DNA of 64,000 bases from a virus (lineage: Duplodnaviria; Caudoviricetes). The notes beneath the pieces are model-generated. The model was not told the origin of the DNA. It made no database searches and was given only the letters and a program-made list of their open reading frames with translations. The DNA lies in IMG/VR virus record IMGVR_UViG_2841531823_000001, positions 1-64,000 of that record; one strand, given 5' to 3'. Positions 5,121 to 40,422 of the stretch are shown piece by piece (the stretch's first letter is position 1; every line of letters begins with the position of its first letter). The translations under genes and the position numbers were made by a program.

Positions 5121-5122
5121 GG

Positions 5123-5254
5123 CTATCCCCCGATGAAGTGCCGGGCTATGGCCCAGACAACGAGAAGTCCGGCGACGATCAGCCACGCCCGGGCTTCTTC
5201 CTTGACCGTGCGCCCAATCGCATCAGGGCGCGGGCGGAGACGGTCCTTAGCCAT
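5123..5254 (-). CDS. small membrane protein (lysis cassette)
   Basis: 43 aa with one TM helix; GGAGG RBS; start overlaps upstream stop. Confidence 0.55.
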   Translation of the reverse strand: MAKDRLRPRPDAIGRTVKEEARAWLIVAGLLVVWAIARHFIGG

Positions 5255-5982: not shown

Positions 5983-8900
5983 CTACCCGTAGAGGCTTGT
6001 CGCGCCGAAGCGGGCCATGATCTCCCGCTCGAGCTTGTCGTTCAGCCTGATCCCTCCGCCCTCAGCGATGTCCTGTCCGGCCTTGATGCGCGAGCGCAGG
6101 GAGCGGCGGATCGTGTCGCCGGTGATCGCGAATTGCGGGTGCGCTCGATTGAACTCGGCCACCTGATCGAAGGCCTCCCGGCTCGGTCGCTCGCCCGCGC
6201 GCAGGGCCTTGGTGATCTCGTTCAGGATCTCGCGCCGGTCGTCCTCGATCCGCTTCTGGGCGTTCATGCGGCGGTTGTTGATCTCGTAGCGCTCCGAGAC
6301 CTTCGCCGGGCTGAAGCCGAGCGCCTGGGTGATCGCCTGCGCGGGGCTGACATCCTCAAGGATGGTGTCTCCCTTCCTGGTCGTGACGCCTTCGGTCATG
6401 TAGCGGAAGCCCTTCATGGCGTCGCGCACGAACTTCGGTACCGCCGTCTCGACGCCGCGATAGACGTTCCCATCGGCAGCAACACCGATGCCCGTGAAGA
6501 TGCTGGCGCCGATCGCCGGGACCGGGCCGATGACCTGCTCGACCCAATAAGCATAGAGGTCGTCGCCCTCCATTTGCCTGTCCGGTGCCCTGAACCAGAG
6601 TTCCGGCATCCCGAGGCGGCTTGTCAGGTCGATGCCGGTCAGGTGCCCAGGCACGCCCTTGAGGAACAGTCCGGCAATCTCCGGCCCGAAGAGACCGATC
6701 AAGCCCTGCTTGATCTCCTCCTCGACGCCATCGGCGCCATCGTCATCGAACAGACCGAGCAGGGCGGTAATCAGCGCATAGCCCCATGTGCCGGTGATCC
6801 CGGCGTGCAGCATCATAGAGGCCGTGATCCCGATCAGCTGCGTCCGCGCCTCCTTGCGCTCCTCCGCGGTGCGCCCGCGCACCATCTGGTGCATGTCGCG
6901 GAACAGCCGGTAGAGCATGTTGATCTGGAAGTTGCGGAACGTGAAGGCCACCCGGAGCCAGTCCTGTTGCAGCAGCCGCGGCCGCGCATCGGACTCGTAG
7001 TTGAAATGGGTGTCCCATGTCACCCTGCCGGCCGTCTCCACGGCGGCCTCGTGAGACTGCCCCTCGGCGCGGCCGAGCCGATAGGCGGCCAGGAACGTGA
7101 TCTCCCGGTTCATCCGCTCGGTGTGGTGGAACATGAACGCGATCGGCTTCATCAGCCGGGCGCGCAGGTCCGAATACTCTGCCCCGGCCTCCGCAATCCC
7201 GGCGAGGTCGTGGGACTGGCTCTTGTCGATGACGCCGCGGCGGTAGGCCTCGGCCAAGGCCCGTTTCTCGTCGTGCGTGAGGCGCTTGGAGTCGGCAGCA
7301 TGGCCCTTGCCGGAGGCGAAGTCGCGGAGCCCGCGCAGGAGCTCGCGCGTAACCCCCGTGACGTTCGCCCCCTTGAACCGGGCCAACATCACCGGCACGC
7401 CCACGATTGTGGTCTGCGACAGGTTCACCATGGCCGCCGCCGGCGTGGCGCCGAGGTAATAGACGAAGGCCGCCGAGGACGCCCAGGCGCTCCATGCGCT
7501 CGACTTCGGGTTCATCGTGAACTCGTGCCGCCGCAGGATCTCGTTGACCACGAGTTTCGCCCGGTTCGGATCGTCGGTCTTGTCCGCATCCACCTCGGCC
7601 TTCTCGAGCTCGTTGGTCATCTTCATGCCGAAGCGCAGGCGGGCAATCTGGTGGGCGCCGTGGAATGCCTTGACCCCGAAGACGCGGAAGGCGTCGCGTG
7701 TGAAGCCCTCGGTCCCCTTTCGGTGCAGGCGGCTCTTGCGGATCGACAAGTCCGGCATGGTCTCGAGATACCGCTGCCAGATCGCATCCATCAGCGCGTC
7801 ATCCTTGCCGGCGTCGCCCACCAGCTTCTCGATGTCCGCAACGAAGGTCGGGTCGATCATCTCCTTCATCTTGCCGGCGGCGTCGGTCATCACGCCCATC
7901 TGGACACGGGCGCCGGTCTTCTTCTGCTCGGCCGCGAAAGCCTGTTGCTCGCGCTCGCTCTCGAACTTGGAGAAGCTGACCACCTTGCCGTCCGCATCGC
8001 GCACGGTCACGAAGTAGTTGCCGAAGCGCCCGAGCGGGAAGTATGGCCCCTCAATCCGGTTGGACTCGAAGACGGACCGGAGCGCCGAGATCCGGGCCGA
8101 GGCGCCCCAGCCCGCGGAGCGCTTCACCGTCGCAAGGCGCCGCTTGGCCGCGTCCACCGCCTCGTCATATTCGGCACCCTCGAGCCCGTCGTCGCGGATG
8201 CGCTGCATCTCGTCGTCATAGGCCCGCTGCGCCCGCTGCAGGTTGACGCTCATCGCCACCCGCACGTTCTCGAGCACCGCGCGCTCCTCCGCGTCCGCCA
8301 TCTCGCGGTAGAAGTCCCTGACCTCCCGGTAGATGGATTGCAACGGCTCGGGCAGCGCGTCGAACTTCGCCTTCAGGTCCGCATGGGCCTCCTGCCCCGC
8401 CACGATCCGGGCGGCATAGGCCGAGGCGCCCTCGTTCGGCCCGCGCCGGGGCTTCACGAACGGCTTGGACGGGTCCAGCCGCGCGATGGTGGACTCGTGC
8501 ATGAGATCCATCATCGCTTGGTTCTGCTTCTGCCCTTCCTTGCCACGCATGGCCTTGCGCCACCGCTGCGCCACCTCATCGGCCCGGGCCTGCCGCTCGT
8601 TCCGTTCCGCCCCCATGTCGTGCTTCAGGTTCAGGTACGCGCGGATGCTCGGGAGCCGCTTGCCGAGCTCGGCAAGAAGCGGCTCCCCGGGAACCAGCGC
8701 CAGAAGGTTCGCCCGGCCCTTGCCGCCCATGGCGTCGGTGAGGATTTGGGAGATCAGGCCGCGCTCGGCCGCCGCCCCGCGAGGCCGGATCAGATCTGCA
8801 CGGAACTCGTGCCCCGTCAGGCCTTGAGCATTGCCTTGATCTGCGCCAGCGCCGCCGCGGCGTCCTTCCGCAAGGATTCGATCTCGGACGGCTTCAGTCG

Positions 8901-11900
8901 GCTTGAACCGCGCGAGGTATCGGGCTTCGGACTCGGTAAGCGCATCGAACCCGTAGCCCGTGGCGCGAATGAAGTCGGGTTCAATGTCGCCATGCTTGTC
9001 ACGGAGGGCCTGAAGCGTTTCGGGGGACAGTGCCAGTTTGGCGCTATACTGCTTGCCGGTCAAGGCCACAGTGCTGACCACGCGCCCGCCACCGGCCTCG
9101 ATGTGCCCCGCCAGCGAGGCGAAGGTGCCGCCTTGGGTGAGCGTATCGTCCACGACAAGGTAGTCTTGGCCGGCCGACACAGGTCCATCGAACTCAGGAG
9201 CGGCAAAGATCCGGTCCAGCCCCGGGAGCGCGGTGCGCCGCGGGGCGTTGGCCTGAACGATCTCGGCCGCGATATTCAAGCCGAGGCGACTCGCCAGGAC
9301 CCCTGCCGCCGCCAGCGGGATCTTGTTGCGGCCGGCGGCTTCCTCAGAGACGACCGGCACAACGAGGGGCTGGTGGGGGCCGAGTGCTTCCCGCACCCGC
9401 TTTACCAGATCGTCTGTCACCAGGTCGCGCGCAACCCGCACCGCCGCTGCAACATCTCCGGCCTTGGCTGCGGCATAGTCGGGATGGGTGGTGGCGCTGG
9501 CCAGGTCTCCTGCGATGATCGCGGGCCCCAGGCGAAGGGGCGCGCGCATGTCCGCTTCTGCTTCGCGAGACTGCCAGCGTCCATCGGGGCCGCGCGGCTG
9601 CGGGCCGCGCCCGCCTATCTCACCCGCTGCGATCCGCTCCATGGTCAGAGCCGCGCTCTGGAAGCCACGCCCGCGCAGCGCGTTGGCCAGAGCCAGGAAC
9701 AGCGCCTTCACCTTCTGGAAGGCCGCGGCAAGCGCCCCCATGTCGCGCCGGCCCTGCGCCCACTCGCGGTAGAGTTCGGCCACCATCTCCTCGGACCGGC
9801 CCGCGGTGTTCAGATCGGGATAGGCTTCTTCGACGCGCGCCACGATGTCGGCGTCCTTCCGCGCCGCGCGCACCAGCCCCACCCATTCGTCCCGCGTGAA
9901 CAGGCCGTATTCCGCCCCTCCGGCGTTCCCCGGGTCGCGGAGCGCGTGCAGGATCTCGTGATCCAGCGTGCCGCGCCAGTCGCCAGCCCCCACGCGCAGG
10001 CCGATGAAGCCGTTGCGGTAGTGCCCGAAGACGCCGGTGGAGCGCAGCCCGCGCACCGCCGCGGCCGTCACCCGGCGGGAGATGCCGATCTTCCGAAGCT
10101 CGGCCGCGGCCTCGGCCTCGACGCGGTTCAGATCATCGTCCGTGATCTCGCGCGGGTCGACGGGCTCGGCGCCGAAGCGGGAGTCCAGCCCCTCGTCCGG
10201 CGGCAGCAGGTCGTCCACCACCTCCGTTTCCGGCATGTCCGCGAGACGCGAGGCATCGCTCGCGGAAGCAAGCTCGGCGATCACCTCCTTGAGCCGCGTC
10301 TGCTTCTGCTCGTACTCCTCGGCCTTCGCCCAGGGCTTTGCCAGTTCGGCCTCAAGCTCCGGCTTTTCGCGCTGCGCCTTCTCCTTGCCCGCCTCGATGT
10401 TGGCGATGCGGCGGCGAAGGACGGACGGGCGGAAGTGTTCGAGAAGACGGTCAAGCCCCGTCCAGATTGGACCGCGGAGCGCGCCGACCGTGCCCCACAC
10501 CTGCGAGAACTGCACAACCTGCTTCTCATGCACCATGTTCAGGTCGATGGCGGCGCGGACCCCGAGATCCCCGGGCGATGTAACGATGTCGATCTCCATC
10601 GGCAGGCCCTTGAACGCCACGCCATCGATGAAGGCGCTGTCGGCGCCGTTGGCGGTCTGCCGGCGCACCTCGGACTCCAACAGTTCATCCAGCTTGCGCA
10701 CCGCATCTCTGATGTCGATGATCCGCTCGCCGCCGATCTCCATCTCAAAGTCTTCGGTGCCGAACTTGCGCCGGATCTCCTTCTCCAAGGCATCCACGCT
10801 CGTGACCGGCAGGCCCTCAATGTCCAGCTTGAACCGGGCTTTCTCCTTGTCGCCGCGCTGCTCCGCGATCTGCTCGAGACCGAAGTCATAGGCCGCTTGC
10901 GCGCTGTCGAAGGTCTTGCCCTCGATCGTGATGCTGCGCTGCGCCTCGCGCTCCTGCACGCCCGCGAACGCCTCCTCGACCACCGGCAGGTAGCCGCGGA
11001 CAAGCGCGGCATCCGCATCCGCATTCTCGAGCGTGCGGTCGACCTGGCGCAGCTGGGCGCGCAGCCCGTTCACCCGGTTGTTGAAGGAACGGCTCTGCAC
11101 ATCGAGCTTGTTCAGGTCGCCCTGCAGCGTCACCCGCTCCACCATCGGCGGGTTGCCGGTCGCAAGCGCGGCCATCTCCGCCATGTTCGCGGACTCCTCG
11201 TCCTCGAACTCCATGTTGAAGGAGCCGTCGTACTTGCGGATGCCGTTGATCGCCTTCAGCTTGGTCGCGTTCAGCGCCCACATCTTCGCGTCCACGGTCA
11301 TTTCCGTGGCGTAGGCCAGAACCTCGACCTCGAAACCGTCGTGCCCGTATTTCTCGAGGAGCTTGTTGCCCTGCCGCACGATGCGGCCCTCGCGCTGCTC
11401 GATGTCCGAGGGCTTCCACGTCACGTCGACATGGTGCAGCGCCACAAGCCGATCCTGAATGTTGGTCCCAGCGCCCATGCGCGGCGTCGATCCCAGGATC
11501 ACCCGCACGCTCCCGTCACGGACCTGCTTGAACAGGGCTTTCTTGGCCTTGTCGTCCTCGGCCTCCTGAACGAACCGGATCTCGGACTCGGGGATTCCGC
11601 GCTTCGCCAGAAGGCGCTTGATCTCGTCGTAAGCGTTCCAGCCACCCATGACGGCGTTGCGGCGGGCTTCCACGTCCTGCACGTCGAACTTGTCGAGTTC
11701 CTCGACGGCCTTCGCTTCACCGGCTTCGTCGCCCTCTGCCCGCGCCTTCTCGAGCTTCGCCACCCACTCGTCGTATTTGGCGACGAACGCCTCATCGCCC
11801 TTGGCCTTCGGCACGGACCGATCGAGGAAGATCACCTGAGTCCCGCGGTCTTCGGCCTTGTCGCGCCAGATCCGCGCGACGTTATCCACCACGGCCCCGA

Positions 11901-14900
11901 TCTTGCCGCTACCCTCCTCGACGCTGATGCTGGGATCGACGGCGCGGGCGTCCAGCGAGACCTTGCGCGCCCGGTCCATCAGCTTCAGCCGCTCGATGTT
12001 CCGCTCCTTCGGGTTGCGGATGCCGGGCAGGCTGTCGAAGCCGGACACGATGTCCTTCAGGATCGCCCGCTGGGCGGCGTCCGGTTTCACCGCGACCATC
12101 TCCCGATCGCCCTTGCCGGCCTTCTGGGACTTCACCGGCGGCACCGGGAACGGCGCCCCGTCGTTGTCCTCGGCAAAGGCCTTCTTGATGTCATCGAGAG
12201 GAACCGCGTCCGCCACCGAGTAGTAGAGGTCCATCAGGGACCGCATGTTCATCCACTCGCGCCCGAGGCGCGTCACCTCCTTCACGCTGCCGCTTTCGGT
12301 CGGCTCGTAGGCGGAGGCATAGGAGACGAACATCGCGCGCCAGGCGTCGAAGTTGTCGATTCCCATCTCGATCAACTCGTTCGGCGCGAGGTTGCGCAGG
12401 ACCAGATACATCTCGGCGACGGAGTTGCTGATCGGCGTGCCGGTCAGGAAGGCAATCGAGGTGCCTTGCCGGTCGTGCAGGGACCGGGATTTCAGGTGCA
12501 AGTCGATGGCCTTGGCCGAGCCGGTCTTGTTGCCCATCCCCGAGACGCCTTGCAGGCGAGAGGAATAGGACAGGTTCTTGAACTCGTGCGCCTCGTCCAC
12601 CGTCAGGTCGTCAATGCCCATCTCCTCGAAGGAGATCAGCTTGTCGCGGTTCCGCGCCCGGATCTTCGCAAGCCGTTCCTCGAGCTTCGTCACCAGGCGC
12701 TCGGCCTCGGCCACACCGAACGGCTTGCGCTTGCCGAAGGTGACAAAGCCGGCTTCTTCGGCGGCTTCCTCGGCCTCCGCGACCGCATCGCGCGCCGCCT
12801 TCAGTTCAGCCTCGACGTAACGCTCCTCGGTCGACGGATCGAGGTTGATGAAGCCGAAGGAGGAATGGCCGATGATGACGGCATCGTAGTCACCGGCCGC
12901 GATGCGGGCAAACAGGCGGCGCCGGTTCTTCGCCTCGAAGTCGGTCTTGCTGGCCGCCAGCACATTGGCGCCCGGGTAGAGTTGCAGGAAGTCGGACTTC
13001 CATTGCTCGATCAGGTGGTTCGGAACCACGATCAGCGGCTTCCGGGAAAGCCCCATGCGCCGCCGCTCCATCACGCGCGCGATGGCGGTGAAGGTCTTGC
13101 CGGCGCCGACGACGTGATCGTAGAGCACCGTGCGGTCGGTGATCCCGCGCCAGATCGCGTTGAGCTGGTGGCGCCGCATCTTGATCGCGGGATTCTTGCC
13201 CGGAAGCTGAAGGTGGCTGCCGTCCCGCTGCCGGATCAGGCGCGTGTTGAACTTCTCGTTGAAGATGTCGACCAGCTGCTCGCGCCGATCATCGGACTGG
13301 AAAGCCCAATCGAGGAACTCGTTGAAGATTTCCGTGCCCTTGATCTGGCTTTCGGCCGTGGCCTCCTCATCGACGTGGGTTTTCCCCTCGGAATCCCTGT
13401 ACGTCACCTTGAGCGGCGCGCTGTTCAGAAGGCGCTCGACAATCTCGGCCGGGCTCAATGCCCGGTCCGATGTCGCCCATTGTGAAGCAGGATTGCCGTC
13501 CGTCTGCACACCGAACAGGTTGCTGACCGGCTGGAATACCACCGCAGAGCGGCTGTAGCCCAGGTGCTTCAGGAAGTCGGAATAGACCTGCGGCGGGATC
13601 CACGTCGATCCGAGGTTCGGCGTGATGTCGCCCGCCTCCCATCGCGGCGGCTGCACGGCTTCCAGCGCCTTGATGTTGGCTTCGAGCCCGGCGGCGATGG
13701 CCGCGTTCAGCTTCCGGCGCACGAGGCCCGACAGGTAGAGGTCGGCCGGCTCCCAGCGCCCGGTTTCCGGGTCGAAGAACGCCCGCGGGTTCTCGCCCGC
13801 ACTCAACGCCTTCTCCGCCCCGGCCTGATCCGTGCCGAGCAGCTGGGCGATGCGCTCGAGGTCAATCTCCCCGCGCTCGGACAGCGAGACGGCGACGGCC
13901 TCAGACGCATCCTTGGCCGCGGTGATCGGGGCGTGGGGCATTGTCACGCGGCGAGACATGATGGCCGCCTTCTGCGGCTTGCCATCGACAATCTCCTCGG
14001 CGCCGAGCGCAAGAGCGCCGTCCGGCATCGTCAGTAGCATCCGGGCGGTGCTGGCCTTGGTGAGCGGGCCGTGAGCCTTCACGAACGTATCGTAGGCGGC
14101 GTTCAGTTTCTCCCGGTTCCGCTCGATCTGCTTCTCGGTGCCATCCTGCACTTCCAGCACGAACTGGCGCTTCATCAGGTCGCGGATCGGCAGCGCATCC
14201 CGCAGCATGGCGATGCGGTTCTTGCCCCAGCGGCTCGCCGCCGGAACATCGGCTTGATCGACCGTGCGGATGATCTTCTGGTTGCGCGTCGAAAGGGTGC
14301 CGTCAGCCTTGCGGACCTTGACCGGCTTGCCCTTCTCGTCCAGCACATCCTCCTGGATCTGCCACTTCCCGTCCCCGGCATAGGTGTAGTCCGGGCTGAA
14401 CGGGGTGTCGGCGGTCAACTCGATCTCGGTCAGGAGCGGGCGGCCGTCGCCCGTGTCCATCTCGACCACTGTCTTCAGCGTGTCGTTCTCGTCGACGCGC
14501 ACGCCGCCCGGCTCCGCGCCGGCAACCGCGAGGCGCATCGCCTCGGCCATGCGGGAGAAGCTGGCTGATGTACGCTCGGCCACCGCATCACGCGGGGCGC
14601 GCTCGCGGATGCCCGCGATGGCCTCTTTCAGTTTTGCCCCGAACTCTGCCGGGTTCTCCATCGTCACGTTCAGGTCGGCGCGGCCGTTCATCGTGCCGCT
14701 CGCGTCGATCTTCCCGATGACGGCGCGCGGGTTGCGCATGAAGTAGTCGTTGACGCTGATCTCCGCCCCGCTGCCGGCCGGGTCCGTGACCTTGCCGGAC
14801 AAGACCCAGCGCGCGAGGCTGTCGCGCAGGCTGGTGGCCTTCGACACGAGGGCAGGGTCGAGCTTGTCGTTTGCGAGAATGGCTGCGCCGTCGATCCCCA

Positions 14901-17900
14901 GGGACCGGGCGGCGAGATCCGCGGCCTCGGCCTGATCTTCAGTCCAGCGCCGGAAGAACAGGATGTCCGTGACCACCTCAGTCCGCGCGTTCTCCATGAA
15001 GGCGTTGCTCGGAAGCCGGATGGCGGCCTCGAGGTTGGCGAGCCGCGCCATGTCCACCCGGTTCTTCGGGTCCAGCGCATCCATGAGGTTGTGCGTGACC
15101 ACCATCGCCAGCAGGCCGTCAGGCGCCAGCGCCTTGAGCGAGGCGAGGAAGAACTGATTGTGGATCGTGCGGCCGTTCACGTCCGGCTGGTAGCGGAAGA
15201 ACAGGCGGTCGCGGCCGAAGGGCGGGTTGCCGATCGCAAGGGCAAAGCGGCCATCGGGCAGCGGCACCTTCTCGAAGCCGGAGTGCAGCACCTCATGCCC
15301 CGGGTAGAGCAGCTTGGCGATCCGCGCCGTGATGGAGTCGTACTCCACGGCGAGCACCTGGCTCTTGCCGCGCAGGGACTCGGGCATCAGGCCAAGGAAG
15401 TTGCCGGCGCCAACGGACGGCTCGAGGACCGCGCCGCCGGTGAAGCCGAGACGCTGCACGCCCTGCCAGACCGCATCGACCACCGTCCGGCTGGTGTAGT
15501 GGGCGGCTTTGGTGGAGTTGCGCGCGACCTTGATCTCGGACGGGTCCAGAAGCTCCTCGAGTTCGGAGACGCGCTTCTCCCATCCCTTGGCGATGCCCTC
15601 ACCATCGCCCGATCCGGCGACGCGGAAGGCGTTTTTCAGGCCGCCCCAGCCGACGTAGCGGGCGAGGATCGCCTGCTCGTCCGGCGTGGCCCGCCGGTTC
15701 TCGCCCTCGATCTGCTTTAGAAGGCGGATCGCCGCCACGTTGTCGGCATACTTCTGCCCCTCGGTGCCTTCGCCCAGGCGCAGCGCATCCGTGATGGTGA
15801 AGTTGACGGCCGGGATGTTGACCTTGCCGGCCTTGGCCTTCTCGGTTTCCGCGCCCTGCTCACCAACCTTGTCGGAATCGGCCGCGGTGTCCGAGACGCG
15901 GGCACGCTTGCGCCCGCCCTTCGGCTTCTTCTCCCCTACGGGTTTTCGGGTGGCAGCAGAATTTCCTCGGGGAGCACGAGTTCTTCCGCCTCGTGCTTCT
16001 GCATCCCCTTCTGCATCAGCGCGGCCACCTGCTCCGCTGCCCTCCGGCTCGCTCCCTGCGCCTCCGCGTTCAGCGACCCGTCCTTCTCCATCGCCCGGTA
16101 CATCGTCGGGAGATGCTCCTTCCAGTGCTTCAGCGCCATCCCGGCGTACTGCGTCCCCAGCATCTTCGGCCTCGCTTGTGGGTGCCTCATCCATGGTAGC
16201 ATCGGACTCGGTCTTTTTCGAGGCCGCCGCGCGCATCTTACGCACTTCGCGGATCACCTCCTCCGCGCTGTCCATGTCAGCCACGTCCTCGCCCGCCAGT
16301 TCCATGTCGTCGCGGATCTGGTTGTAGGCGTTGCGGGCGTAGGGCTGCGCCTGCTCGAGCGTGAGCCCCATCCTGTCGATCATGGTGTCGATCAGGGCGC
16401 GGAACCGCCGCGTGCCGCTCTTGACGTAGAGCGAGCCGATCTTGAACGCGACGGCGACCATCTGCGGGTCCAGGCCGCTGTTCACCTGGTTCTTGAGCAT
16501 CGCGAGGAACTCGGCCTCGAGCGCCGCGAGTTCGGCGTTCTCGGCCTCGGTCAGCCCTTTCAGCCCTTTCGGCTTGGAGGCGGCAGGCTGCGCAGCAGCT
16601 TTCGGCTTCTTCGGCGCCGGCTTCGGCTTCTCAGGGTCGGCCGCCACCGGCGCCGGGTTCTGTGCAGCCTCGCGCTTCTTCACCGGCTCGGTGGGCTTGG
16701 TCAGGTCGCCGGAGGCGAGCCAGTTCTTGAAGCCCTCAACGCTGGTCGCAGTGAAGCTGCCGATCCGCTGCCGGCCCTTGCCGTCCGAGAAACCGGCCTC
16801 GTAGATCCCCAGCGCGGCCGAGGTGGAGCCGGTTCCGAGGATGACCTTGTGCTCATCCCATTTCCCGGTTTCGGCATCCACCTGATTGACGATCAACACG
16901 AAATCGGAATCCGGCATGTCGCCCATATAGAAGTCGACATGATCGCCGTCCGCGCCCTCGGTGCGCAGAATCCGGCCGTAGTGCGCCGGCATCTTGACCG
17001 ACCATGCCGTTTTCCCGTCCGGCGTGGTCTTGCTACGGATCGAGCCCTTGGCGTTCTCGATCGAGAGCGTGAGGCCATTCCACGGCGCCTTGCCGGTCCG
17101 GTAGTTCTCGGCTTCCTTCTGGGCCTCGGTCGGGTTCGGATCCGTCTCGGCCGCGGCGGCGTCGATCTCCTCGCGGGTCGGGACGGCAGGCTTGCCGCCG
17201 CGCACCACGCCCACGCGGGCGAATGCCGCCTCCGCCTCAGCGATCCCTCCGTTCCCGAGGAAGGTTGCCCCGTGGAACGGGTTGTATTCGTCCCTGAACA
17301 CCGGGGCGATTTTGTCCAGATCGGCATCAGACAGCGAGCCGAGCCAGTCGGCATATTCGGCAACATCGGGGAAGATCCCCGTCCGCATGTCCTCGAGGCT
17401 GTTGTCGGGCTGGCCCATCACCCTCTTGAACAGGGCGAGCCCCCTGTTCTCGCGCCAGCTTTCCGCGGGGGCCTTAACGGACGTCTCGGCATAGCCAGCC
17501 AGCCACTCGGCCCCAAGATCCTCGCCGAACCAAGCAGGGGGCTTCCGAGGCTCGCCATCGCGGGCGGCCGCAGCGCCGGCTTCGCGAGCCTTGCGCTTCT
17601 TCTCCTCATGGCGGGCATCGGCGACCGGCACGGTTTCCGGCGCCGGGCTTTCCCCCGCCGCCGGCTGTTCTTGCTTCGGCTGGGCTACTTCCTCCCGCCC
17701 CTGCCGCCCTTCTTGCATCCCTTGGCCACTGGCCGTCTCCTTCTGCTGAGGTTGAGGTTGAGGTTGGGGGGTGTCGACCCTGGGCTCGACAGGGGGGGCG
17801 GCCTTGGCCTCGGCCAGTCCCATCGCCTGCTCCACGGCCGGCCGATGCTTGCGCGAGAAGATGAACCCGCGCTCGCGCTCATCCCATTTCAGCGACACGC

Positions 17901-20900
17901 CGGGCACGGCCGGGGGCGCATCCTTCGGCACGCCGCGCAGGACCGCGGCCTTGGAGCGGATGTCGGTGATCGAGGGGGCGGGGGCCTCAGCGGTCAAGGA
18001 TTCCTTGACAGGCGCCGGCGCTGCCTCCGCTTGGGAGAGGGAGGCGCGCTTCTCGGTCATGAATCTGTTGTACGCGCCCATGTAGACGCTATCAGCCGCG
18101 CGCGCGACCACGCGGCCGCCACGCTTCTCGATATATCGCCTTTCCGCCTCTTTGGCGTAGGCGTGGGCCTCCGGGTCTACTTCACCGGCAGGCATCGCGT
18201 CGCCCTCCGCTTGGGAGGGCGCCGGGAGGGTAGAGGGAGGAGCGGCGGGAGGAAGGGCCAGAGCCGGCTTCGGAGCCTCGATGGTCCCGGCATTGCGGAT
18301 CGTGCCTGCACGGTAGAGCCGGCCGTAGGCGTCGGTCAGCGCGCGGCGGCCGTTTTCGGACATGCCACCCCAAGTCATCGCCTTGCGGTGCTCGCGCTCG
18401 GCCGCTGGTCCGGCTTCGCGCAGGATCGCCTTGCGGGTGTCGGCATCGGCTGCATCCCACCACGGCGCGGTCCGCGGCACCGGGGGCGGCTGAAGGTCGA
18501 CCCCCACGGATGCGGCGGCATCCTTGCGGGCGCGGGCGTCTTCTTCGGGCGTGATGATCTCGCCCGTCAATGCCGGCGCAGGCTTGGTGCCTGCAGCTGC
18601 ACCATCCATATTGCCCGCAGGAGCATCGTCAGGCGCGATCCCGGCGGAAGCGGGTGAGGCTTCTTCAGGAACCGCTTGATCTTGCGCGCGTCCTTCTTCG
18701 ACAGTGCCCCGATCCTGCGCAGGAACTTCACCGACTCGTGCGCCGTCAGGCAGAACGGCAGCGCCGTCAGCCTCGGGTCCGACAGGTCCAGTTGCAGGTG
18801 CAGTTGCTGTTTCACCGGCGGCCTCCTCCTGAATCGTGCCCGCCTGATCGGCGGTCGGCACGGCCACGAAACCGCCGTCCTTCGGCTCGATCCGGTAGGC
18901 CGCCGGGTCGCGGCCCTGGTTCTCGACGGCGCGGCGGGCCTGCGCCTCGCTCTTGAAAGGGGTGCCGTCCTTCTTCGCGATGACGGCGGGCCGGATCTTC
19001 GACGCCTCCTGTGCCGCCGCATTGTCGGCCAGCATGTCGGCGTCGGCGACGGCCTTCAGTTGATCGTGGATGCCGCGCAGGCGGGCGTCCCAGCCGCGGG
19101 CGCGGGCTTGGTCCTCGATGATCGCGATCCGCTTCCGCGCCTCATCCGGCGTGAGGTCGGAGAAGTCCCCGGTGGCGCGGGCCGGCGGCTCGGCTAGGGC
19201 CGGCGCGGGCGGCATGGGCCCGGGCCCCTGCGGCTTTGGCTCCGGCGCAGCGGCGGCCGGCGGGTCTTCCGGCTTCGCCTTGCCGGTCTTGATGACCGGC
19301 TGCTCGCCCTCGCGGATCGTCGCCGGGCGCTCGAGCTCGGGACCGGGTTCGGTGGTTGGGGCCAAGCTGATGGAGACCTGCCCCGCGTCGAACTCCGAGC
19401 GCGGGATCTCGAGCACCTCGCCGTCGCTGGTCGTTACGGCGACGGCCATAGGCGATTGCGCAGTCAGGGTGCCGCCGATCGGGTTGCCATCCGGGGTCCA
19501 GACGCGAACGGCCGCGCCCGGCTGCACGCCGGGCAGGATCTCGCCGGGCGACAGGTTGGCCGCGGCGCGCATGGCCGGAGTGGGCGCGGGCGCTGGCGCG
19601 GCAGGCGCCGAGGGATTGGCCGGGGCGGGGGCCTGAGCGGCCATGCCGGCGTTGAGCGCGGTGCGGAGCGTGCCACCGGGCCGGAACTGCGCGGGCTGTT
19701 GCGTCGGGTCGCCCGCGCGATAGTCGCCGGGCTGGCGCTCGAATGCCGCGGGATCGCGGGTCGGGCCCGCGCCGAAGATGGTGCCGCCCGCCTCGGGCGC
19801 CGGGAGCGCGAGGGTCTGTTGCTCCGCCTCGGGGCGCGGAGGCTCCTCGACGTTCACCTCCGGCTCGTGCCGGCCCATCGCGCCAGCCACGCCGCCCACT
19901 GTGCCACCGACGATACCGGCGGCGACGCCGACCTCGAGATATTCGCGGCGGGCGTCCTCATCCCAGAGCGGCAGACCAGCTTGCGCCCGCTCGATCACGG
20001 ATTGACCGATCTCCGTCGGAACCTCGACCATCCCGCCCATTGCGGCGCCGCCGGCGGCCCGGCCGAGGATCTTCATCCCGGCCTTCTCGGCCACCTCACG
20101 CGGCACAGCGCGGGTGAAGATGCCGGTCAGGCCCTTCGCGGCAGGCTTGAGCGCGAGACCGCCAATCAGCATGTCACCGAAGGTATCAAGCGCCGCCTGC
20201 GGGGCGGAGGCAACGATAGCCTTGAGCTCGTCCACTCCCTCGGACGGATGCGCCTCCTTCTGGCGCTCCCGGTTCATGCCGTAGAAGAAGGGCAGGTTGG
20301 CGAGCGTGCCGCCGATCATGCCGCCCACGGCGCCGGCCGCGGTCCCGAGCCCAGGCAGTACCGCAGTGCCGATGGCCGCGCCGGTGGCTGCGGCGCCGAG
20401 CGAAACGCCCAGCTGCGGCACCTGTTGGGCCAGAGTCTCCCCAACGAACTTTGCCCCCGAGCCGACACCATCGACATCCTCGAGGCGCGTCATCCCTGCG
20501 CTTGCGTCCTCGATCTCCTGCCGGTTCCGGTCGGCCACTCCCGCGCCATATTCCGCCAGCCCATCGAGCCCGGTTGACCGGCCCACGCCCTCGATGGCCG
20601 AGCCAGTCGCCTGCTGAAGCTGGTCGATGCCCACGCCCACGGCGGCCCCGAGGCCGCCCTCCTTGGGCGGCTGCGCAGCCTTCAGCTTCGCCATCTGCTT
20701 CGGATACAGGGCCTCGCCGATCTCGCGCGCCCGGGTCATGAAGGCGTCAGCCTTGTCGCCCGCCGTCTCGCGGATCAGGGACTTGATGTCCTCTCCGGCC
20801 TGAATGCGCGGGCCGAGCTCGGCCGCGGCCTGCTCTGCGATGGCAAGCGCCTCGTCGGCCGTCTTCGCGCCGCCGGTCTCGGCCAGCGCAATGAGCACGT

Positions 20901-21009
20901 TCGCGGGAACCTTCGTCTTGCGCGCAATGCCTTCGACGCTCTGCCGCGCCGTCGATCCGCCCCCCTGCTTCGCGTCGTTCTGGGTCTCGAACATGAAGAG
21001 CGGGTTCAT
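5983..21009 (-). CDS. giant DarB-like polyvalent virion protein (5008 aa): InPase-like, N6-adenine MTase, SNF2 helicase, zincin peptidase, PRTase, PLxRFG and C-terminal LPD-type domains
   Basis: HYGRILRTEGADGDHVD..DEHKVILG; LEPSVGAG and GNPPF; VGAGKT, DEAH, QREGRIVRQGN; HEILH; VVDDTLTQGGT; YFPLGRFG. Confidence 0.92.
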   Translation of the reverse strand: MNPLFMFETQNDAKQGGGSTARQSVEGIARKTKVPANVLIALAETGGAKTADEALAIAEQAAAELGPRIQAGEDIKSLIRETAGDKADAFMTRAREIGEALYPKQMAKLKAAQPPKEGGLGAAVGVGIDQLQQATGSAIEGVGRSTGLDGLAEYGAGVADRNRQEIEDASAGMTRLEDVDGVGSGAKFVGETLAQQVPQLGVSLGAAATGAAIGTAVLPGLGTAAGAVGGMIGGTLANLPFFYGMNRERQKEAHPSEGVDELKAIVASAPQAALDTFGDMLIGGLALKPAAKGLTGIFTRAVPREVAEKAGMKILGRAAGGAAMGGMVEVPTEIGQSVIERAQAGLPLWDEDARREYLEVGVAAGIVGGTVGGVAGAMGRHEPEVNVEEPPRPEAEQQTLALPAPEAGGTIFGAGPTRDPAAFERQPGDYRAGDPTQQPAQFRPGGTLRTALNAGMAAQAPAPANPSAPAAPAPAPTPAMRAAANLSPGEILPGVQPGAAVRVWTPDGNPIGGTLTAQSPMAVAVTTSDGEVLEIPRSEFDAGQVSISLAPTTEPGPELERPATIREGEQPVIKTGKAKPEDPPAAAAPEPKPQGPGPMPPAPALAEPPARATGDFSDLTPDEARKRIAIIEDQARARGWDARLRGIHDQLKAVADADMLADNAAAQEASKIRPAVIAKKDGTPFKSEAQARRAVENQGRDPAAYRIEPKDGGFVAVPTADQAGTIQEEAAGETATAPATGPVGPEADGAAVLPDGARVGEVPAQDRGTVEEGRAQDQAVPEEASPASAGIAPDDAPAGNMDGAAAGTKPAPALTGEIITPEEDARARKDAAASVGVDLQPPPVPRTAPWWDAADADTRKAILREAGPAAEREHRKAMTWGGMSENGRRALTDAYGRLYRAGTIRNAGTIEAPKPALALPPAAPPSTLPAPSQAEGDAMPAGEVDPEAHAYAKEAERRYIEKRGGRVVARAADSVYMGAYNRFMTEKRASLSQAEAAPAPVKESLTAEAPAPSITDIRSKAAVLRGVPKDAPPAVPGVSLKWDERERGFIFSRKHRPAVEQAMGLAEAKAAPPVEPRVDTPQPQPQPQQKETASGQGMQEGRQGREEVAQPKQEQPAAGESPAPETVPVADARHEEKKRKAREAGAAAARDGEPRKPPAWFGEDLGAEWLAGYAETSVKAPAESWRENRGLALFKRVMGQPDNSLEDMRTGIFPDVAEYADWLGSLSDADLDKIAPVFRDEYNPFHGATFLGNGGIAEAEAAFARVGVVRGGKPAVPTREEIDAAAAETDPNPTEAQKEAENYRTGKAPWNGLTLSIENAKGSIRSKTTPDGKTAWSVKMPAHYGRILRTEGADGDHVDFYMGDMPDSDFVLIVNQVDAETGKWDEHKVILGTGSTSAALGIYEAGFSDGKGRQRIGSFTATSVEGFKNWLASGDLTKPTEPVKKREAAQNPAPVAADPEKPKPAPKKPKAAAQPAASKPKGLKGLTEAENAELAALEAEFLAMLKNQVNSGLDPQMVAVAFKIGSLYVKSGTRRFRALIDTMIDRMGLTLEQAQPYARNAYNQIRDDMELAGEDVADMDSAEEVIREVRKMRAAASKKTESDATMDEAPTSEAEDAGDAVRRDGAEALEGASPDDVPGDGEGRVAERGGAGSEPEGSGAGGRADAEGDAEARGGRTRAPRGNSAATRKPVGEKKPKGGRKRARVSDTAADSDKVGEQGAETEKAKAGKVNIPAVNFTITDALRLGEGTEGQKYADNVAAIRLLKQIEGENRRATPDEQAILARYVGWGGLKNAFRVAGSGDGEGIAKGWEKRVSELEELLDPSEIKVARNSTKAAHYTSRTVVDAVWQGVQRLGFTGGAVLEPSVGAGNFLGLMPESLRGKSQVLAVEYDSITARIAKLLYPGHEVLHSGFEKVPLPDGRFALAIGNPPFGRDRLFFRYQPDVNGRTIHNQFFLASLKALAPDGLLAMVVTHNLMDALDPKNRVDMARLANLEAAIRLPSNAFMENARTEVVTDILFFRRWTEDQAEAADLAARSLGIDGAAILANDKLDPALVSKATSLRDSLARWVLSGKVTDPAGSGAEISVNDYFMRNPRAVIGKIDASGTMNGRADLNVTMENPAEFGAKLKEAIAGIRERAPRDAVAERTSASFSRMAEAMRLAVAGAEPGGVRVDENDTLKTVVEMDTGDGRPLLTEIELTADTPFSPDYTYAGDGKWQIQEDVLDEKGKPVKVRKADGTLSTRNQKIIRTVDQADVPAASRWGKNRIAMLRDALPIRDLMKRQFVLEVQDGTEKQIERNREKLNAAYDTFVKAHGPLTKASTARMLLTMPDGALALGAEEIVDGKPQKAAIMSRRVTMPHAPITAAKDASEAVAVSLSERGEIDLERIAQLLGTDQAGAEKALSAGENPRAFFDPETGRWEPADLYLSGLVRRKLNAAIAAGLEANIKALEAVQPPRWEAGDITPNLGSTWIPPQVYSDFLKHLGYSRSAVVFQPVSNLFGVQTDGNPASQWATSDRALSPAEIVERLLNSAPLKVTYRDSEGKTHVDEEATAESQIKGTEIFNEFLDWAFQSDDRREQLVDIFNEKFNTRLIRQRDGSHLQLPGKNPAIKMRRHQLNAIWRGITDRTVLYDHVVGAGKTFTAIARVMERRRMGLSRKPLIVVPNHLIEQWKSDFLQLYPGANVLAASKTDFEAKNRRRLFARIAAGDYDAVIIGHSSFGFINLDPSTEERYVEAELKAARDAVAEAEEAAEEAGFVTFGKRKPFGVAEAERLVTKLEERLAKIRARNRDKLISFEEMGIDDLTVDEAHEFKNLSYSSRLQGVSGMGNKTGSAKAIDLHLKSRSLHDRQGTSIAFLTGTPISNSVAEMYLVLRNLAPNELIEMGIDNFDAWRAMFVSYASAYEPTESGSVKEVTRLGREWMNMRSLMDLYYSVADAVPLDDIKKAFAEDNDGAPFPVPPVKSQKAGKGDREMVAVKPDAAQRAILKDIVSGFDSLPGIRNPKERNIERLKLMDRARKVSLDARAVDPSISVEEGSGKIGAVVDNVARIWRDKAEDRGTQVIFLDRSVPKAKGDEAFVAKYDEWVAKLEKARAEGDEAGEAKAVEELDKFDVQDVEARRNAVMGGWNAYDEIKRLLAKRGIPESEIRFVQEAEDDKAKKALFKQVRDGSVRVILGSTPRMGAGTNIQDRLVALHHVDVTWKPSDIEQREGRIVRQGNKLLEKYGHDGFEVEVLAYATEMTVDAKMWALNATKLKAINGIRKYDGSFNMEFEDEESANMAEMAALATGNPPMVERVTLQGDLNKLDVQSRSFNNRVNGLRAQLRQVDRTLENADADAALVRGYLPVVEEAFAGVQEREAQRSITIEGKTFDSAQAAYDFGLEQIAEQRGDKEKARFKLDIEGLPVTSVDALEKEIRRKFGTEDFEMEIGGERIIDIRDAVRKLDELLESEVRRQTANGADSAFIDGVAFKGLPMEIDIVTSPGDLGVRAAIDLNMVHEKQVVQFSQVWGTVGALRGPIWTGLDRLLEHFRPSVLRRRIANIEAGKEKAQREKPELEAELAKPWAKAEEYEQKQTRLKEVIAELASASDASRLADMPETEVVDDLLPPDEGLDSRFGAEPVDPREITDDDLNRVEAEAAAELRKIGISRRVTAAAVRGLRSTGVFGHYRNGFIGLRVGAGDWRGTLDHEILHALRDPGNAGGAEYGLFTRDEWVGLVRAARKDADIVARVEEAYPDLNTAGRSEEMVAELYREWAQGRRDMGALAAAFQKVKALFLALANALRGRGFQSAALTMERIAAGEIGGRGPQPRGPDGRWQSREAEADMRAPLRLGPAIIAGDLASATTHPDYAAAKAGDVAAAVRVARDLVTDDLVKRVREALGPHQPLVVPVVSEEAAGRNKIPLAAAGVLASRLGLNIAAEIVQANAPRRTALPGLDRIFAAPEFDGPVSAGQDYLVVDDTLTQGGTFASLAGHIEAGGGRVVSTVALTGKQYSAKLALSPETLQALRDKHGDIEPDFIRATGYGFDALTESEARYLARFKPTEAVRDRILAEGRRGGAGADQGNAQGLTGHEFRADLIRPRGAAAERGLISQILTDAMGGKGRANLLALVPGEPLLAELGKRLPSIRAYLNLKHDMGAERNERQARADEVAQRWRKAMRGKEGQKQNQAMMDLMHESTIARLDPSKPFVKPRRGPNEGASAYAARIVAGQEAHADLKAKFDALPEPLQSIYREVRDFYREMADAEERAVLENVRVAMSVNLQRAQRAYDDEMQRIRDDGLEGAEYDEAVDAAKRRLATVKRSAGWGASARISALRSVFESNRIEGPYFPLGRFGNYFVTVRDADGKVVSFSKFESEREQQAFAAEQKKTGARVQMGVMTDAAGKMKEMIDPTFVADIEKLVGDAGKDDALMDAIWQRYLETMPDLSIRKSRLHRKGTEGFTRDAFRVFGVKAFHGAHQIARLRFGMKMTNELEKAEVDADKTDDPNRAKLVVNEILRRHEFTMNPKSSAWSAWASSAAFVYYLGATPAAAMVNLSQTTIVGVPVMLARFKGANVTGVTRELLRGLRDFASGKGHAADSKRLTHDEKRALAEAYRRGVIDKSQSHDLAGIAEAGAEYSDLRARLMKPIAFMFHHTERMNREITFLAAYRLGRAEGQSHEAAVETAGRVTWDTHFNYESDARPRLLQQDWLRVAFTFRNFQINMLYRLFRDMHQMVRGRTAEERKEARTQLIGITASMMLHAGITGTWGYALITALLGLFDDDGADGVEEEIKQGLIGLFGPEIAGLFLKGVPGHLTGIDLTSRLGMPELWFRAPDRQMEGDDLYAYWVEQVIGPVPAIGASIFTGIGVAADGNVYRGVETAVPKFVRDAMKGFRYMTEGVTTRKGDTILEDVSPAQAITQALGFSPAKVSERYEINNRRMNAQKRIEDDRREILNEITKALRAGERPSREAFDQVAEFNRAHPQFAITGDTIRRSLRSRIKAGQDIAEGGGIRLNDKLEREIMARFGATSLYG
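8817..8945 (-). CDS. nested +1-frame small ORF overlapping the end of the PRTase domain (start uncertain)
   Basis: C-terminal LKPSEIESLRKDAAAALAQIKAMLKA amphipathic helix uses GC3-rich codons; no clear RBS. Confidence 0.45.
   Translation of the reverse strand: MRLPSPKPDTSRGSSRLKPSEIESLRKDAAAALAQIKAMLKA
15936..16163 (-). CDS. nested +1-frame gene, TnpV-like small helical protein (75 aa)
   Basis: GAGG-6nt-ATG; strong GC3 bias; YAGMALKHWKEHLPTMY..EAEELVLPEEILLPPE resembles the TnpV pattern. Confidence 0.75.
   Translation of the reverse strand: MLGTQYAGMALKHWKEHLPTMYRAMEKDGSLNAEAQGASRRAAEQVAALMQKGMQKHEAEELVLPEEILLPPENP
16193..16221 (-). promoter_or_regulatory. putative internal sigma70 promoter for the nested TnpV-like gene
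   Basis: TCGAAA-17nt-TACCAT with extended -10 TG. Confidence 0.45.
17685..17729 (-). CDS. nested +1-frame micro-ORF MAKGCKKGGRGGRK (14 aa)
   Basis: AAGGAG-7nt-GTG preceded by unstructured (CAACCT)n. Confidence 0.45.
   Translation of the reverse strand: MAKGCKKGGRGGRK
18567..18815 (-). CDS. nested +1-frame gene, basic 82-aa protein
   Basis: AGGAGGAGG-6nt-GTG; codons CTG/AAG/TTC/GAC/ATC typical of host while main frame turns A/T-ending and low-complexity. Confidence 0.75.
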   Translation of the reverse strand: MKQQLHLQLDLSDPRLTALPFCLTAHESVKFLRRIGALSKKDARKIKRFLKKPHPLPPGSRLTMLLRAIWMVQLQAPSLRRH

Positions 21010-37767: not shown

Positions 37768-39980
37768 GGCTGAAGTCCTTCCATCGGTTGGGGTTGGGGT
37801 TGAGGTTCCGCCGGCATGGGCATGTCGCCGGCCGGCATTGGGGCTGCATCCAGCGCCGGGGCGGCACCGGAGGCGGCGAGGAGCGCGTCGGCGGTGTCAA
37901 CCGCGGGCTCGGCCTGGAGCATCTGGATCGCCGTCTCCAGCGCGGCGCGCAGCTGGGCGAGGCGGTCGGTCGGCAGGGACGCCTCCGCCTTAGCGGCTTG
38001 GACGGCCTTGAGCGCGGCCGCGGCTTGCTTGTCGGCGGCCTCGCCCTCGAGCTTGGCGAGCTCGGCCATGGCGGCGCGCTGCTCCATCTCGGCTTGCGCG
38101 GCCTTGGCCTCCTCGCGCGCCTGGCGCTCGGGATCGGGCGAGTTCGGGTCCGCGTCGGGATCCTCCTGCCCGGTCAGGCCGCGGATGCGCTTCACGATCT
38201 CCTCCTGCGAGGGGATGTCCATGGCCTCTACCAGCAGGTCCAGAAGCGCCATGACGATCTGCGGGGCGACGGGTGCCAGCTGCATCAGAAGCTCAAGGAA
38301 GGCCTGCACCTGGGCCTCGCGCAGCGTTGCCGCCCACTCGTCTTCCGAGAGGATGTAATCGGCCTTGGTGCGCACGATGTCGTTCTCGGGCAGGCCATCC
38401 ATGACGGTGATGTATTCCGGCGTCCCGCGGCGGTTCGTGATGCGGAATTGCTTCTCCTCGGTCATGAACTGCTCGATGAGCGACAGCTTCTTTTCGCCGT
38501 GGATCTGTTTCCCCAGCCGGTAGGAGGCGAAGATCGGCGCGGTGGTGAGGGCGCCCTGATCCTGCCGCCGCTGGATCGCGATGCCGGACTTGGCGTTGGT
38601 CGTGCGGCCCATGTTCTCGTCGGTGATGCCGCTGAGACTCTGGATCATCCCGCGCTCCACTTCGAGGAGCCCCAGCTGGGACTGCGCAAGCTCGCGGTCG
38701 GACACGATCTCGATGTTCTTGCCGACGTTCTTCTCGATCACGAAGTCAGGGCGCGCGATTTCCTCGATGAAATCATCGATGTCATCCACGGCGCCCTTGT
38801 CCATGATGACGCCCTTGCTGTTCAGCAGGTATTGAGCCTTGCTGAACCGCTTGTTGATGTCCGCTTGGGCGTCCCGCATCTGCCGGACGACGCCATAGGG
38901 CATCCCGTTGTCGGACCGGCGGTAACACCAGAGGGGCGTGAGCGGGAAACGGTTGTGCCGATAGGGCGACGGGCTGAGATAGAGCATCCCCGCCGAGGTG
39001 AAGATGGCGACGAACATGCGGAACGTCGTCTTGCGGGTGACGCGGGCCCGGCCGGCGGCCACCTCCTCCTGATGCCCGGGGCTCCACTCGTCGTAGAGTT
39101 CGCCCGAGAACTGGCCGCCGGAGACGCGGCGCTCCTTCACCGGCACCCGGAACCAGCACTCGATCAGCCGCACCCGGTCCCGCGTCGCGGTGGAATACTC
39201 GGACATCAGGTCGCCGGTGGTGTCGATCATCTCCTCTTGGGCGTCCATCGCCGTGTCGCCCATGCGATCAAGGCTCACGGTGTAATCCTGCAGGGATTTC
39301 GCCGACATCTCGATCAGGGTCGCGCGGTCGGGGAAGATGTCGGCCGCCGTATCGAGGTCCACCCATTTCGTGCGGAACAGGTAGCGGGCATCCGACAGGT
39401 CATCCTCGCGCGAGGCGCTGTCCCAGAGGATGTTGCGCCACGATTCAGCGCGGTCATAGATCGGCTCGCCCTCGGCCTCGTCCTGCACGCCGGCCTCGAG
39501 CCAGCCCACGCCGGCCTTGACCTGCTCGCCGAACGCCTTGGAGCCGTGCGCTTCCGAGCGGTTGACGTCGCTCAGATACTTGAGGATCTGGCTCTTGCGC
39601 TCGCCCGCCTTGGCGCCCTCCTTGCGGCGAGGCAGCACCTTGCCATCGGTCCTCGTGCGCTGCTCGGTGCCGAGCATCCAGTTGATGCTCTGCGCGATGA
39701 GGTTGAGCACCATGGGCTCCTGCCCGCGGTCGCGGAGGGTCTGCGCGTCGGCGGCGGTCCACTGGATGCCGTCATAGAAGGCCTCGTCGGCCTCCATCTG
39801 AGCCCGGTTTTCGGAATGGATCGATAGCTCGCGCATGTAGTGCCCGAGCAGGCGATGGTGCAGATCGGTGGCGGGCTGCGTGTCCAGATGGGCCCCGAGG
39901 GCGGCATCGACATCTCCGAGCAGGCCCTGGAGGAACTTGGTGGGCATTCGCGCCCCGAAGCGATGGGCCATGTCAGACAT
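37764..39980 (-). CDS. portal protein (P22-like)
   Basis: FYDGIQWT, PYRHNRFP, YGVVRQMRDAQADINKR, SGIAIQRRQDQG. Confidence 0.9.
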   Translation of the reverse strand: MSDMAHRFGARMPTKFLQGLLGDVDAALGAHLDTQPATDLHHRLLGHYMRELSIHSENRAQMEADEAFYDGIQWTAADAQTLRDRGQEPMVLNLIAQSINWMLGTEQRTRTDGKVLPRRKEGAKAGERKSQILKYLSDVNRSEAHGSKAFGEQVKAGVGWLEAGVQDEAEGEPIYDRAESWRNILWDSASREDDLSDARYLFRTKWVDLDTAADIFPDRATLIEMSAKSLQDYTVSLDRMGDTAMDAQEEMIDTTGDLMSEYSTATRDRVRLIECWFRVPVKERRVSGGQFSGELYDEWSPGHQEEVAAGRARVTRKTTFRMFVAIFTSAGMLYLSPSPYRHNRFPLTPLWCYRRSDNGMPYGVVRQMRDAQADINKRFSKAQYLLNSKGVIMDKGAVDDIDDFIEEIARPDFVIEKNVGKNIEIVSDRELAQSQLGLLEVERGMIQSLSGITDENMGRTTNAKSGIAIQRRQDQGALTTAPIFASYRLGKQIHGEKKLSLIEQFMTEEKQFRITNRRGTPEYITVMDGLPENDIVRTKADYILSEDEWAATLREAQVQAFLELLMQLAPVAPQIVMALLDLLVEAMDIPSQEEIVKRIRGLTGQEDPDADPNSPDPERQAREEAKAAQAEMEQRAAMAELAKLEGEAADKQAAAALKAVQAAKAEASLPTDRLAQLRAALETAIQMLQAEPAVDTADALLAASGAAPALDAAPMPAGDMPMPAEPQPQPQPMEGLQP

Positions 39981-40422
39981 GATCGCGGATCTCCCGTTCG
40001 GCGGTTCGGCCGGTGGCGTTGTTTCGGAGCAGCATCTCGGCCACGGCCTCCTGCTCCGAGCGCGGCATGGGCGGGCAGGTGATGAGCTCGTGCAGGTTCT
40101 CCACCACCGCCGTCCGCACGCGATGCACGTCGGCGATGATGAGGCTGGAGAGCCCGAGGGCGTCGCAGAACAGCATGGCCCGCTTGGTGGCCTCCAGCTG
40201 GTCCCCGCGGGTCTCGTCCCAGATCCATGCCGTCGACATGGGCACGACGCAGGGGATGATGCGGTCGTAGCCGAGCATGGTGTCGGCCGCTGGGGTGAGG
40301 ACGAGGCAGGACTCGCCCGTCATGCGGTTCCACGTCGTCCAGACGGAGATCCGCCGATAGTCGCGCCGGCACCAGGAGAAGCGCAGGTCGTAGGCGGGCT
40401 TATAGTCCGGGGTGTCGCTCAT
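39973..40422 (-). CDS. hypothetical protein
   Basis: ATGA coupling to terminase stop. Confidence 0.65.
   Translation of the reverse strand: MSDTPDYKPAYDLRFSWCRRDYRRISVWTTWNRMTGESCLVLTPAADTMLGYDRIIPCVVPMSTAWIWDETRGDQLEATKRAMLFCDALGLSSLIIADVHRVRTAVVENLHELITCPPMPRSEQEAVAEMLLRNNATGRTAEREIRDHV

Follow-up and report, generated by a model that had tools for sequence, protein, structure and literature searches.

A probable small gene nested in a giant proviral gene

We analyzed a 64,000-nucleotide stretch of tailed-phage DNA (the window), positions 1 to 64,000 of IMG/VR record IMGVR_UViG_2841531823_000001, which is part of a 96-kb provirus record. Its minus strand carries a giant gene of 5008 codons, and inside this open reading frame (ORF), on the same strand, lies a small ORF that we call X. 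The offset between the two starts is 21009-18815 = 2194 = 3x731+1, which puts X in frame +1 relative to the giant ORF. The giant protein has Pfam matches to InPase (1.1e-43), LPD39 (2.3e-59), and the SNF2-related family (7.4e-8), with weaker matches to ResIII, Helicase_C, and an Eco57I methylase. Because several unrelated conflict-related domains are joined in one provirus polypeptide, we regard the host as a large polyvalent protein (PMC5512222). Its gene is the last in a same-strand late run that includes the small and large terminase, portal, major head, virion structural, and internal virion proteins. Closing the late run in this way fits a protein carried in the virion. The features of the locus are listed in Table 1.

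Table 1. Features of the X locus and the surrounding giant gene
Feature	Coordinates	Strand	Details
Host gene, large polyvalent protein	5983..21009	minus	5008 aa; ORF with Pfam domains at the end of the late/structural module
Nested gene X (predicted)	18567..18815	minus	GTG 18815..18813, 82 codons, TGA 18569..18567; +1 frame of giant ORF
Shine-Dalgarno-like AGGAGGAGG	18822..18830	minus	6 nt (CCGCCG) before the GTG of X
Host-frame acidic disordered linker (GETATAPATGPVGPEADG...KPAPALT)	18570..18816	minus	83% G/A/P/S/T/E/D/Q/N; net charge -10
Upstream host-frame module (…KKDGTPFKSEAQ…YRIEPKDGGFVAVP…)	18817..18996	minus	Accompanies X in 6/11 loci
Downstream host module	17949..18562	minus	Swapped in a close relative; boundary a few bases from the X stop
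Nested gene Y (predicted)	15936..16202	minus	+1 frame of giant ORF; 88 codons from first ATG, likely start at conserved Met 16163

The original prediction, made from the letters of the window, placed the Shine-Dalgarno (SD) sequence 6 nt ahead of a GTG opening an 82-aa peptide. Both the sequence and the peptide match exactly, down to the TGA, and translation confirmed the Arg/Pro/Ser-rich text described in the frame of X directly upstream of the GTG. We calculated a duplex with the anti-SD of -12.1 kcal/mol, which stands at quantile 0.001 of 3428 background start-like triplets from surrounding host ORFs. Of the 11 loci where we found X (see below), 8 have an ATG or GTG preceded by an SD duplex of -8.4 kcal/mol or lower, which ranks at quantile 0.028 or below in the background. 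Around the proposed starts, a 45-nt segment folds less stably than random host-ORF positions in 10/10 loci (mean z 0.66). No sigma-70-like promoter was found in 18300..19500, and the template for X would therefore be the host mRNA. On this computational basis, X is predicted to have its own start codon and ribosome-binding site. The SD sequence, the start codon, and the weak local mRNA structure together make it likely that X is independently initiated.

The openness of X alone is unexceptional, as the giant ORF contains 18 open +1 stretches of at least 70 aa (70–176 codons). What goes beyond chance is an inverted codon signature, conservation of the frame, and the SD sequence. Over the whole giant ORF, GC content at codon positions 1, 2, and 3 is 0.70, 0.48, and 0.86, respectively. 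Across 18819..18580, third-position GC (GC3) is only 0.41 in the host frame and 0.86 in the nested frame (240-nt windows), which puts a measure on the claim of the original prediction that X uses codons unlike a shadow frame. At a 60-nt scale, the switch starts at ~18850 and the host signal is back at ~18600. Among 493 windows scanned, five were listed with host GC3 below 0.5, and these are confined to the X segment and to 16209..15910. The inversion is present in all 11 X loci, with GC3 of 0.76–0.92 in the nested frame and 0.38–0.55 in the host frame.

Relatives of X keep the same nested arrangement

A related provirus, L002, was found through the downstream host segment; its own giant ORF likewise encloses, in frame +1, an ORF of 83 codons. 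The two copies share 37% identity (BLASTP E = 4e-12). In local BLOSUM62 comparisons of the homologous DNA, the nested frame scores 121, the host frame 46, and the third frame 55, and the AGGAGG is conserved. A phmmer search of 1.84 billion representative proteins, with no length limit, returned six matches. Four of these are small proteins of 63–84 aa, with E between 1.8e-20 and 9.8e-5, and we regard the remaining two, which are long and repetitive, as spurious. Furthermore, a profile search of 5.8 billion clusters gave nine X-family clusters, unnamed or annotated as “hypothetical,” all from contigs of 3.3 kb or less. It appears that gene callers report the X ORF only where the host ORF is truncated.

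For genomic context, we assembled 160 InPase-anchored loci (80 from genomes and 80 from viral contigs, each with flanks of 10 kb; some are duplicates) and ran a family hidden Markov model on six-frame translations of 164 sequences. This placed the X family in 11 distinct loci including the window, mostly proviral and from Rhodobacteraceae; the six loci with titles are all Rhodobacteraceae genomes or metagenome-assembled genomes. Cultured isolates named among the InPase-anchored loci include Frigidibacter oleivorans XJ4 (L016), Rhodobacter sp. NTK016B (L015), and Paracoccus onubensis (L020). In 11/11, X shares the strand of the host and occupies the +1 frame within 506–5361 open codons. Its stop is always TGA, and its last residue is His in nine loci and Asn in two. 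Absence of the frame in relatives had been named as the finding that would speak against X, and the reverse was found. The host at L094 is an ordinary 486-aa gene made up of an N-terminal domain, a linker, and InPase, and X is nested in it in the same way.

Several other searches added no members. As a single query against viral contigs, X had no relatives, and a word-indexed protein search likewise found none. Searching genomes and viral contigs with alignments A2 and A3 added no loci, and a six-member alignment was too diverse for a pattern search. Metagenome scans with the short subgroup of X found no true members. A scan of metagenomes for the back-translated AVWMWQM motif produced 120 loci, three of them weak matches that carried the motif only, and again no true members. 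No match was obtained by blastn and tblastn against cultured phages and plasmids, and the ESM Atlas gave no usable match.

Stronger conservation in the nested than in the host frame

We compared conservation of the three frames across the overlap using 55 pairs and 63 ungapped columns from the 11 loci. The BLOSUM62 score per column is 1.18 for the nested frame, 0.38 for the host frame, and 0.08 for the third frame. As a control, the single-coding InPase of the same loci gave 3.37 for its true frame and 1.36 and 1.08 for its shadows. By this comparison, X behaves as the true frame in the overlap and the host reading as a shadow, since the ratios of the overlap scores mirror those of the control. 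The ratio of nonsynonymous to synonymous differences (pN/pS) in the six closest pairs points the same way, at 0.60–0.78 for the nested frame and 0.96–1.23 for the host frame. Raw divergence per codon position was saturated and uninformative. We conclude from the alignments that X appears to be conserved as a protein under purifying selection, with pN/pS clear only in the closest pairs. The original prediction of a real nested coding frame is thus supported, both by conservation of the frame in relatives and by its better conservation than the host's.

The host frame is maintained as well. We redrew the synonymous codons of each nested protein from host codon usage and asked how often the host frame stays open. 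The probability of this happening by chance is 0.013–0.66 per locus (geometric mean 0.12), while the host frame is observed open in 11/11. Dual coding of the X segment is thus shown by comparison of the loci.

The host-frame product of these bases is a linker of similar character throughout the 11 loci, with 77–86% G/A/P/S/T/E/D/Q/N, 9–19% hydrophobic residues, and a net charge of -2 to -14. At ~18570..18600 (minus strand) and the equivalent positions in other loci, the last host-frame codons of the overlap are conserved (…GTGEP..ALT or …PLN), opposite a nested …QL.P.N…H-stop. This constraint could come from either frame or both, and a polyprotein processing site is conceivable.

A probable second nested gene in the same host

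The other region of low host GC3 holds a second candidate, Y, 2.4 kb beyond X in the same giant gene. In the Y segment (~16210..15940), GC3 is 0.48 in the host frame and 0.81 in the nested frame, and an SD-like sequence precedes the conserved Met. A jackhmmer search found Y in eight distinct loci, and in each of them the surrounding open stretch, of 2577–5011 codons, has Y in its +1 frame. The frame of Y has the higher GC3 in 8/8, at 0.76–0.90 in seven loci and at 0.54 versus 0.42 in L161. Y matches the Pfam family TnpV (PF14198) over 57–73 residues, at E = 1.2e-5 (25.7 bits) and E = 6.4e-5 (23.3 bits). Both scores fall below the gathering cutoff of 27, and the match is seen in one of the eight family members, the window copy; Y is therefore weakly TnpV-like. 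Y also matches the C-terminal end of phrog_938. A single-protein scan with Y against viral contigs found nothing.

We also scanned 121 long ORFs for GC3 inversion; of the 46 segments flagged, 45 are in frame +1. The scan criterion itself favors +1, because the third position of that frame is the GC-rich first position of the host, and some of the flagged “hosts” are themselves shadow ORFs. Host GC3 collapses within giant ORFs, and the +1 frame reads as protein-like text, at L053:10805-11179, L076:13214-13693, and L005:9269-9628 (all plus strand). Two further 64-aa ORFs, L127:8985-9176 and L132:9669-9860 (both plus strand), are nested +1 in ORFs of 4077 and 2914 codons, respectively. They share a GAGGTG-ATG start, a His-TGA end, and 63% mutual identity. 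A relationship between this pair and X could not be demonstrated (hhalign probability 3.7%), and the pair may be a third nested family.

Interpretation and alternative explanations

Taken together, these results make it very likely that X is a real embedded gene under selection. The fuller statement, that X is a genuine, independently translated, and conserved gene lying out of frame (+1, same strand) in the linker of a polyvalent gene, we consider quite likely. Translation would begin within the giant late mRNA, at the internal AGGAGGAGG-GTG, and end with the TGA at 18567, giving an 82-aa protein with a predicted three-helix core. In frame 0, the same bases would encode the acidic disordered linker, whose sequence would be dictated by X and would need only to be open and flexible.

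Several points weigh against this interpretation. The case for translation of X is a prediction on computational grounds throughout. Over all 55 pairs, pN/pS is saturated, at 0.96 nested versus 1.08 host with the nested value lower in 35/55, and it adds little for that reason. The product of the host-openness probabilities across the 11 loci, 8e-11, overstates their independence because the loci share descent. Starts are weak or unclear in three loci: L049 (-7.4), L090 (-6.4), and L020, which has none that is convincing and has the Asn end. The mRNA-structure effect is small, and the GC content of the start windows is below the background mean in 7/10 loci, which may explain part of it. The family is also rare. 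In a survey of one bacterial family, 3 of 401 genomes matched, two of them credibly; these were the known L016 element and the same element as L090, and we rejected the third, a weak match within an ordinary low-GC gene. Finally, any guess at the function of X is weak, as its fold has no significant structural neighbor.

A programmed +1 frameshift, with AGGAGG as the stimulator, would instead make X the C-terminal domain of a truncated N-terminal fragment of the giant protein. SD-like elements stimulate frameshifting in prfB and dnaX, X has an SD-like sequence inside a translated ORF, and both X and Y lie in the +1 frame and stop while the host continues. However, we consider a frameshift improbable: in most loci an ATG or GTG is retained after the SD at the spacing used for initiation, and a frameshift would not need one. 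A +1-frame stop lies 5 codons before the ATG in L094 and 11 before the start in L002, which leaves 15–33 nt for the shift, and inspection of the window so defined in these two loci showed none of the known slippery or stop-codon-hungry motifs. Furthermore, the short subgroup begins at a conserved Met, and gene callers predict stand-alone proteins of 63–84 aa elsewhere. Displacement of an in-frame domain by two compensating indels, or by assembly errors, could also produce a local switch of codon signature between frames. Yet the +1 arrangement with its own stop recurs in 11 independent assemblies, a ~95% identical relative (run X1) has no indels there, and X cannot rejoin the host frame since it ends in a conserved stop. 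Neither phmmer without a length limit nor a profile search of 148–2000-aa proteins found an in-frame form of X, although the profile search is weak evidence. Such displacement is very unlikely.

Neutral decay at the divergence seen here would have erased the frame, the SD, the GC3 signature, and the fold, which speaks against X as a relic, that is, a once independent gene overrun by the giant ORF, no longer translated, and decaying. The loci are very diverged (pS ~0.5, InPase 64% identical), yet the X frame is intact from core to stop in 11/11. Most loci keep the SD and start, the GC3 signature persists, and the fold based on co-evolution is confident. The saturation of pN/pS over all pairs would suit a relic, as would L020 with its unclear start and different end, but we find decay hardly probable. 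That X is a chance open shadow frame without coding meaning is extremely unlikely. Open +1 stretches are common in this GC-rich giant ORF, as the count of 18 illustrates, but chance is contradicted by frame-specific conservation, database relatives, the SD, the fold, and inverted GC3.

Assuming that X is an embedded gene, the arrangement probably arose by extension of the giant ORF across a pre-existing small gene. A single event removing the stop of the upstream gene could fuse the flanking genes across the small one. Such extension would be easy because the -1 frame of a GC3-rich gene is nearly stop-free, as a stop needs T at the third position. The genome-like codon signature of the nested frame and the weak likeness of Y to a stand-alone family fit X as the older reading. 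However, the GC3 inversion reports present constraint and need not reveal which frame is older; it may simply reflect strong constraint on X and weak constraint on the linker.

Module exchange around X and the provirus setting

The ~95% identical relative (run X1, a 58-kb contig) keeps 18562..19100 and agrees with the window across the X segment without indels, with 27 differences counted for this contig, but it has a different sequence directly after the X stop. There, 612 bases are replaced by 531 unrelated bases (612-531 = 81, frame kept). Likewise, 17639..17805 is replaced by 27 other bases, again with the frame kept. Because both replacements preserve the reading frame, the comparison indicates that the giant gene undergoes in-frame module swapping. 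As the relative retains X together with the upstream sequence and differs after the X stop, X travels with the upstream module. There are two types of upstream module, with which the X subgroups roughly agree.

These observations permit a broader and speculative model, to which we give a low probability. In it, polyvalent genes grow over small, live resident genes, the nested protein is a dedicated partner of the module (chaperone, inhibitor, or immunity-like), and module and partner form a recombining cassette. The basis for this model is the recombination boundary at the X stop, the rough tracking of upstream type by the X subgroups, and the presence of a second, perhaps a third, nested family.

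Opposite the giant gene, a 602-codon antisense ORF (16849..18657, plus strand) consists of Arg/Gly/Leu/Pro-rich shadow text with no coding sign seen. Elsewhere in the window, besides the methylase domain of the giant protein, the minus strand carries three DNA-methyltransferase-like genes and a PAPS-reductase-like gene (39976..40641, 45678..46667, 49195..50349, and 48012..49091).

Predicted structure and possible function of X

AlphaFold2, run with a 22-sequence alignment, predicted X with a mean predicted local distance difference test (pLDDT) score of 77, rising to 83–95 for residues 21–70. The model has three helices (25–34, 40–51, and 61–74) that form the core. Conserved positions are A25, K30, L32, R33, P55, G59, L62, Q73, and the C-terminal H82. 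The original prediction called the protein basic, which is true of the window copy at a net charge of +13; the other copies range from -3 to +10, so that the family as a whole is only mildly basic (-3 to +13, positive in 10/11).

Searches for a known relative were largely unproductive. Nothing significant was found in Pfam or PHROGs, and the best match in a profile search of PDB sequences had E = 0.2. Of the two peptide searches that were proposed with the original prediction, BLASTP matched X to the L002 copy, while Foldseek found no significant neighbor; against PDB and BFVD, there was no match at E ≤ 0.001 (best E = 1.1). VIA-align gave no match at Z ≥ 5 (best Z 4.5). Its tied, sub-threshold matches include sigma region 4 (Z 4.3, root mean square deviation 2.9 Å over 49 residues), KorA (Z 3.5), and integrase core-binding domains. 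Helix-turn-helix families matched single X members weakly, 1–2 of 22 each, at E of 0.02 or higher. Tentatively, X may be a small nucleic-acid-binding or regulatory protein of helix-turn-helix-like type, made together with the virion-carried giant protein. It is also conceivable, but doubtful, that X serves the host module next to it as a dedicated partner, either chaperone or inhibitor.

Comparison with known embedded genes

To our knowledge, bacteria and their phages offer few out-of-frame embedded genes that are well supported by comparison. One example is Rz1 of phage λ, which is wholly embedded in the +1 frame of Rz, has its own start, and produces a secreted lipoprotein that pairs with Rz. 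X is likewise a phage gene predicted to be embedded in +1 with its own start. However, X has no signal peptide or lipobox by inspection, and it is hosted by a gene for a virion-associated polyvalent protein, not by a lysis gene. Before 2019, only two internal overlapping ORFs had been characterized, according to the account in PMC11230408. The passages there on GndA, encoded within gnd of E. coli, describe a same-strand frameshifted ORF whose evidence includes an SD, start, and stop conserved in homologs (PMC11230408). GndA is 36 aa long, lies in a frame called +2 (with the host numbered +1), and sits inside a conserved enzyme (PMC11230408). By comparison, X proteins are 63–84 aa long, lie in a disordered linker, and appear better conserved than the host reading.

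The case of comS in srfAB of Bacillus subtilis is similar in arrangement. In the portion of PMC12915044 that treats it, comS encodes a small protein in a distinct frame of a giant multidomain ORF, on the same transcript, and stops that are silent in the host are possible. X is likewise a same-strand, out-of-frame small gene in a giant multidomain ORF. The families are unrelated, and the host of comS is a non-ribosomal peptide synthetase module rather than a polyvalent linker. Furthermore, here it is the nested frame that carries the codon signature of the genome, and one host holds two different nested genes. The giant gene fits the polyvalent proteins described by Iyer et al. in 2017; by a term search, the main text of that paper mentions neither overlapping or frameshifted coding nor TnpV, and nested coding in linkers is not described there (PMC5512222). 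Our literature searches, at the level of listed titles and passages, turned up no account of genes nested within polyvalent proteins. What would be new here is an uncharacterized small-protein family in a polyvalent linker, a nested frame that dominates the constraint, and the presence of another nested gene in the same host.

The polarity of this overlap is unusual, in that the nested X would be strongly constrained while the giant protein uses the same bases just as a disordered linker. One gene shows this arrangement twice, and the two small proteins are unrelated. The locus lends itself to experiment, since stops introduced in either frame can be silent in the other. If X and Y are genes as predicted, a class of small phage proteins goes unseen in standard annotation, and the arrangement points to a simple way in which giant multidomain proteins of phages may be assembled in GC-rich genomes, namely read-through over small genes.

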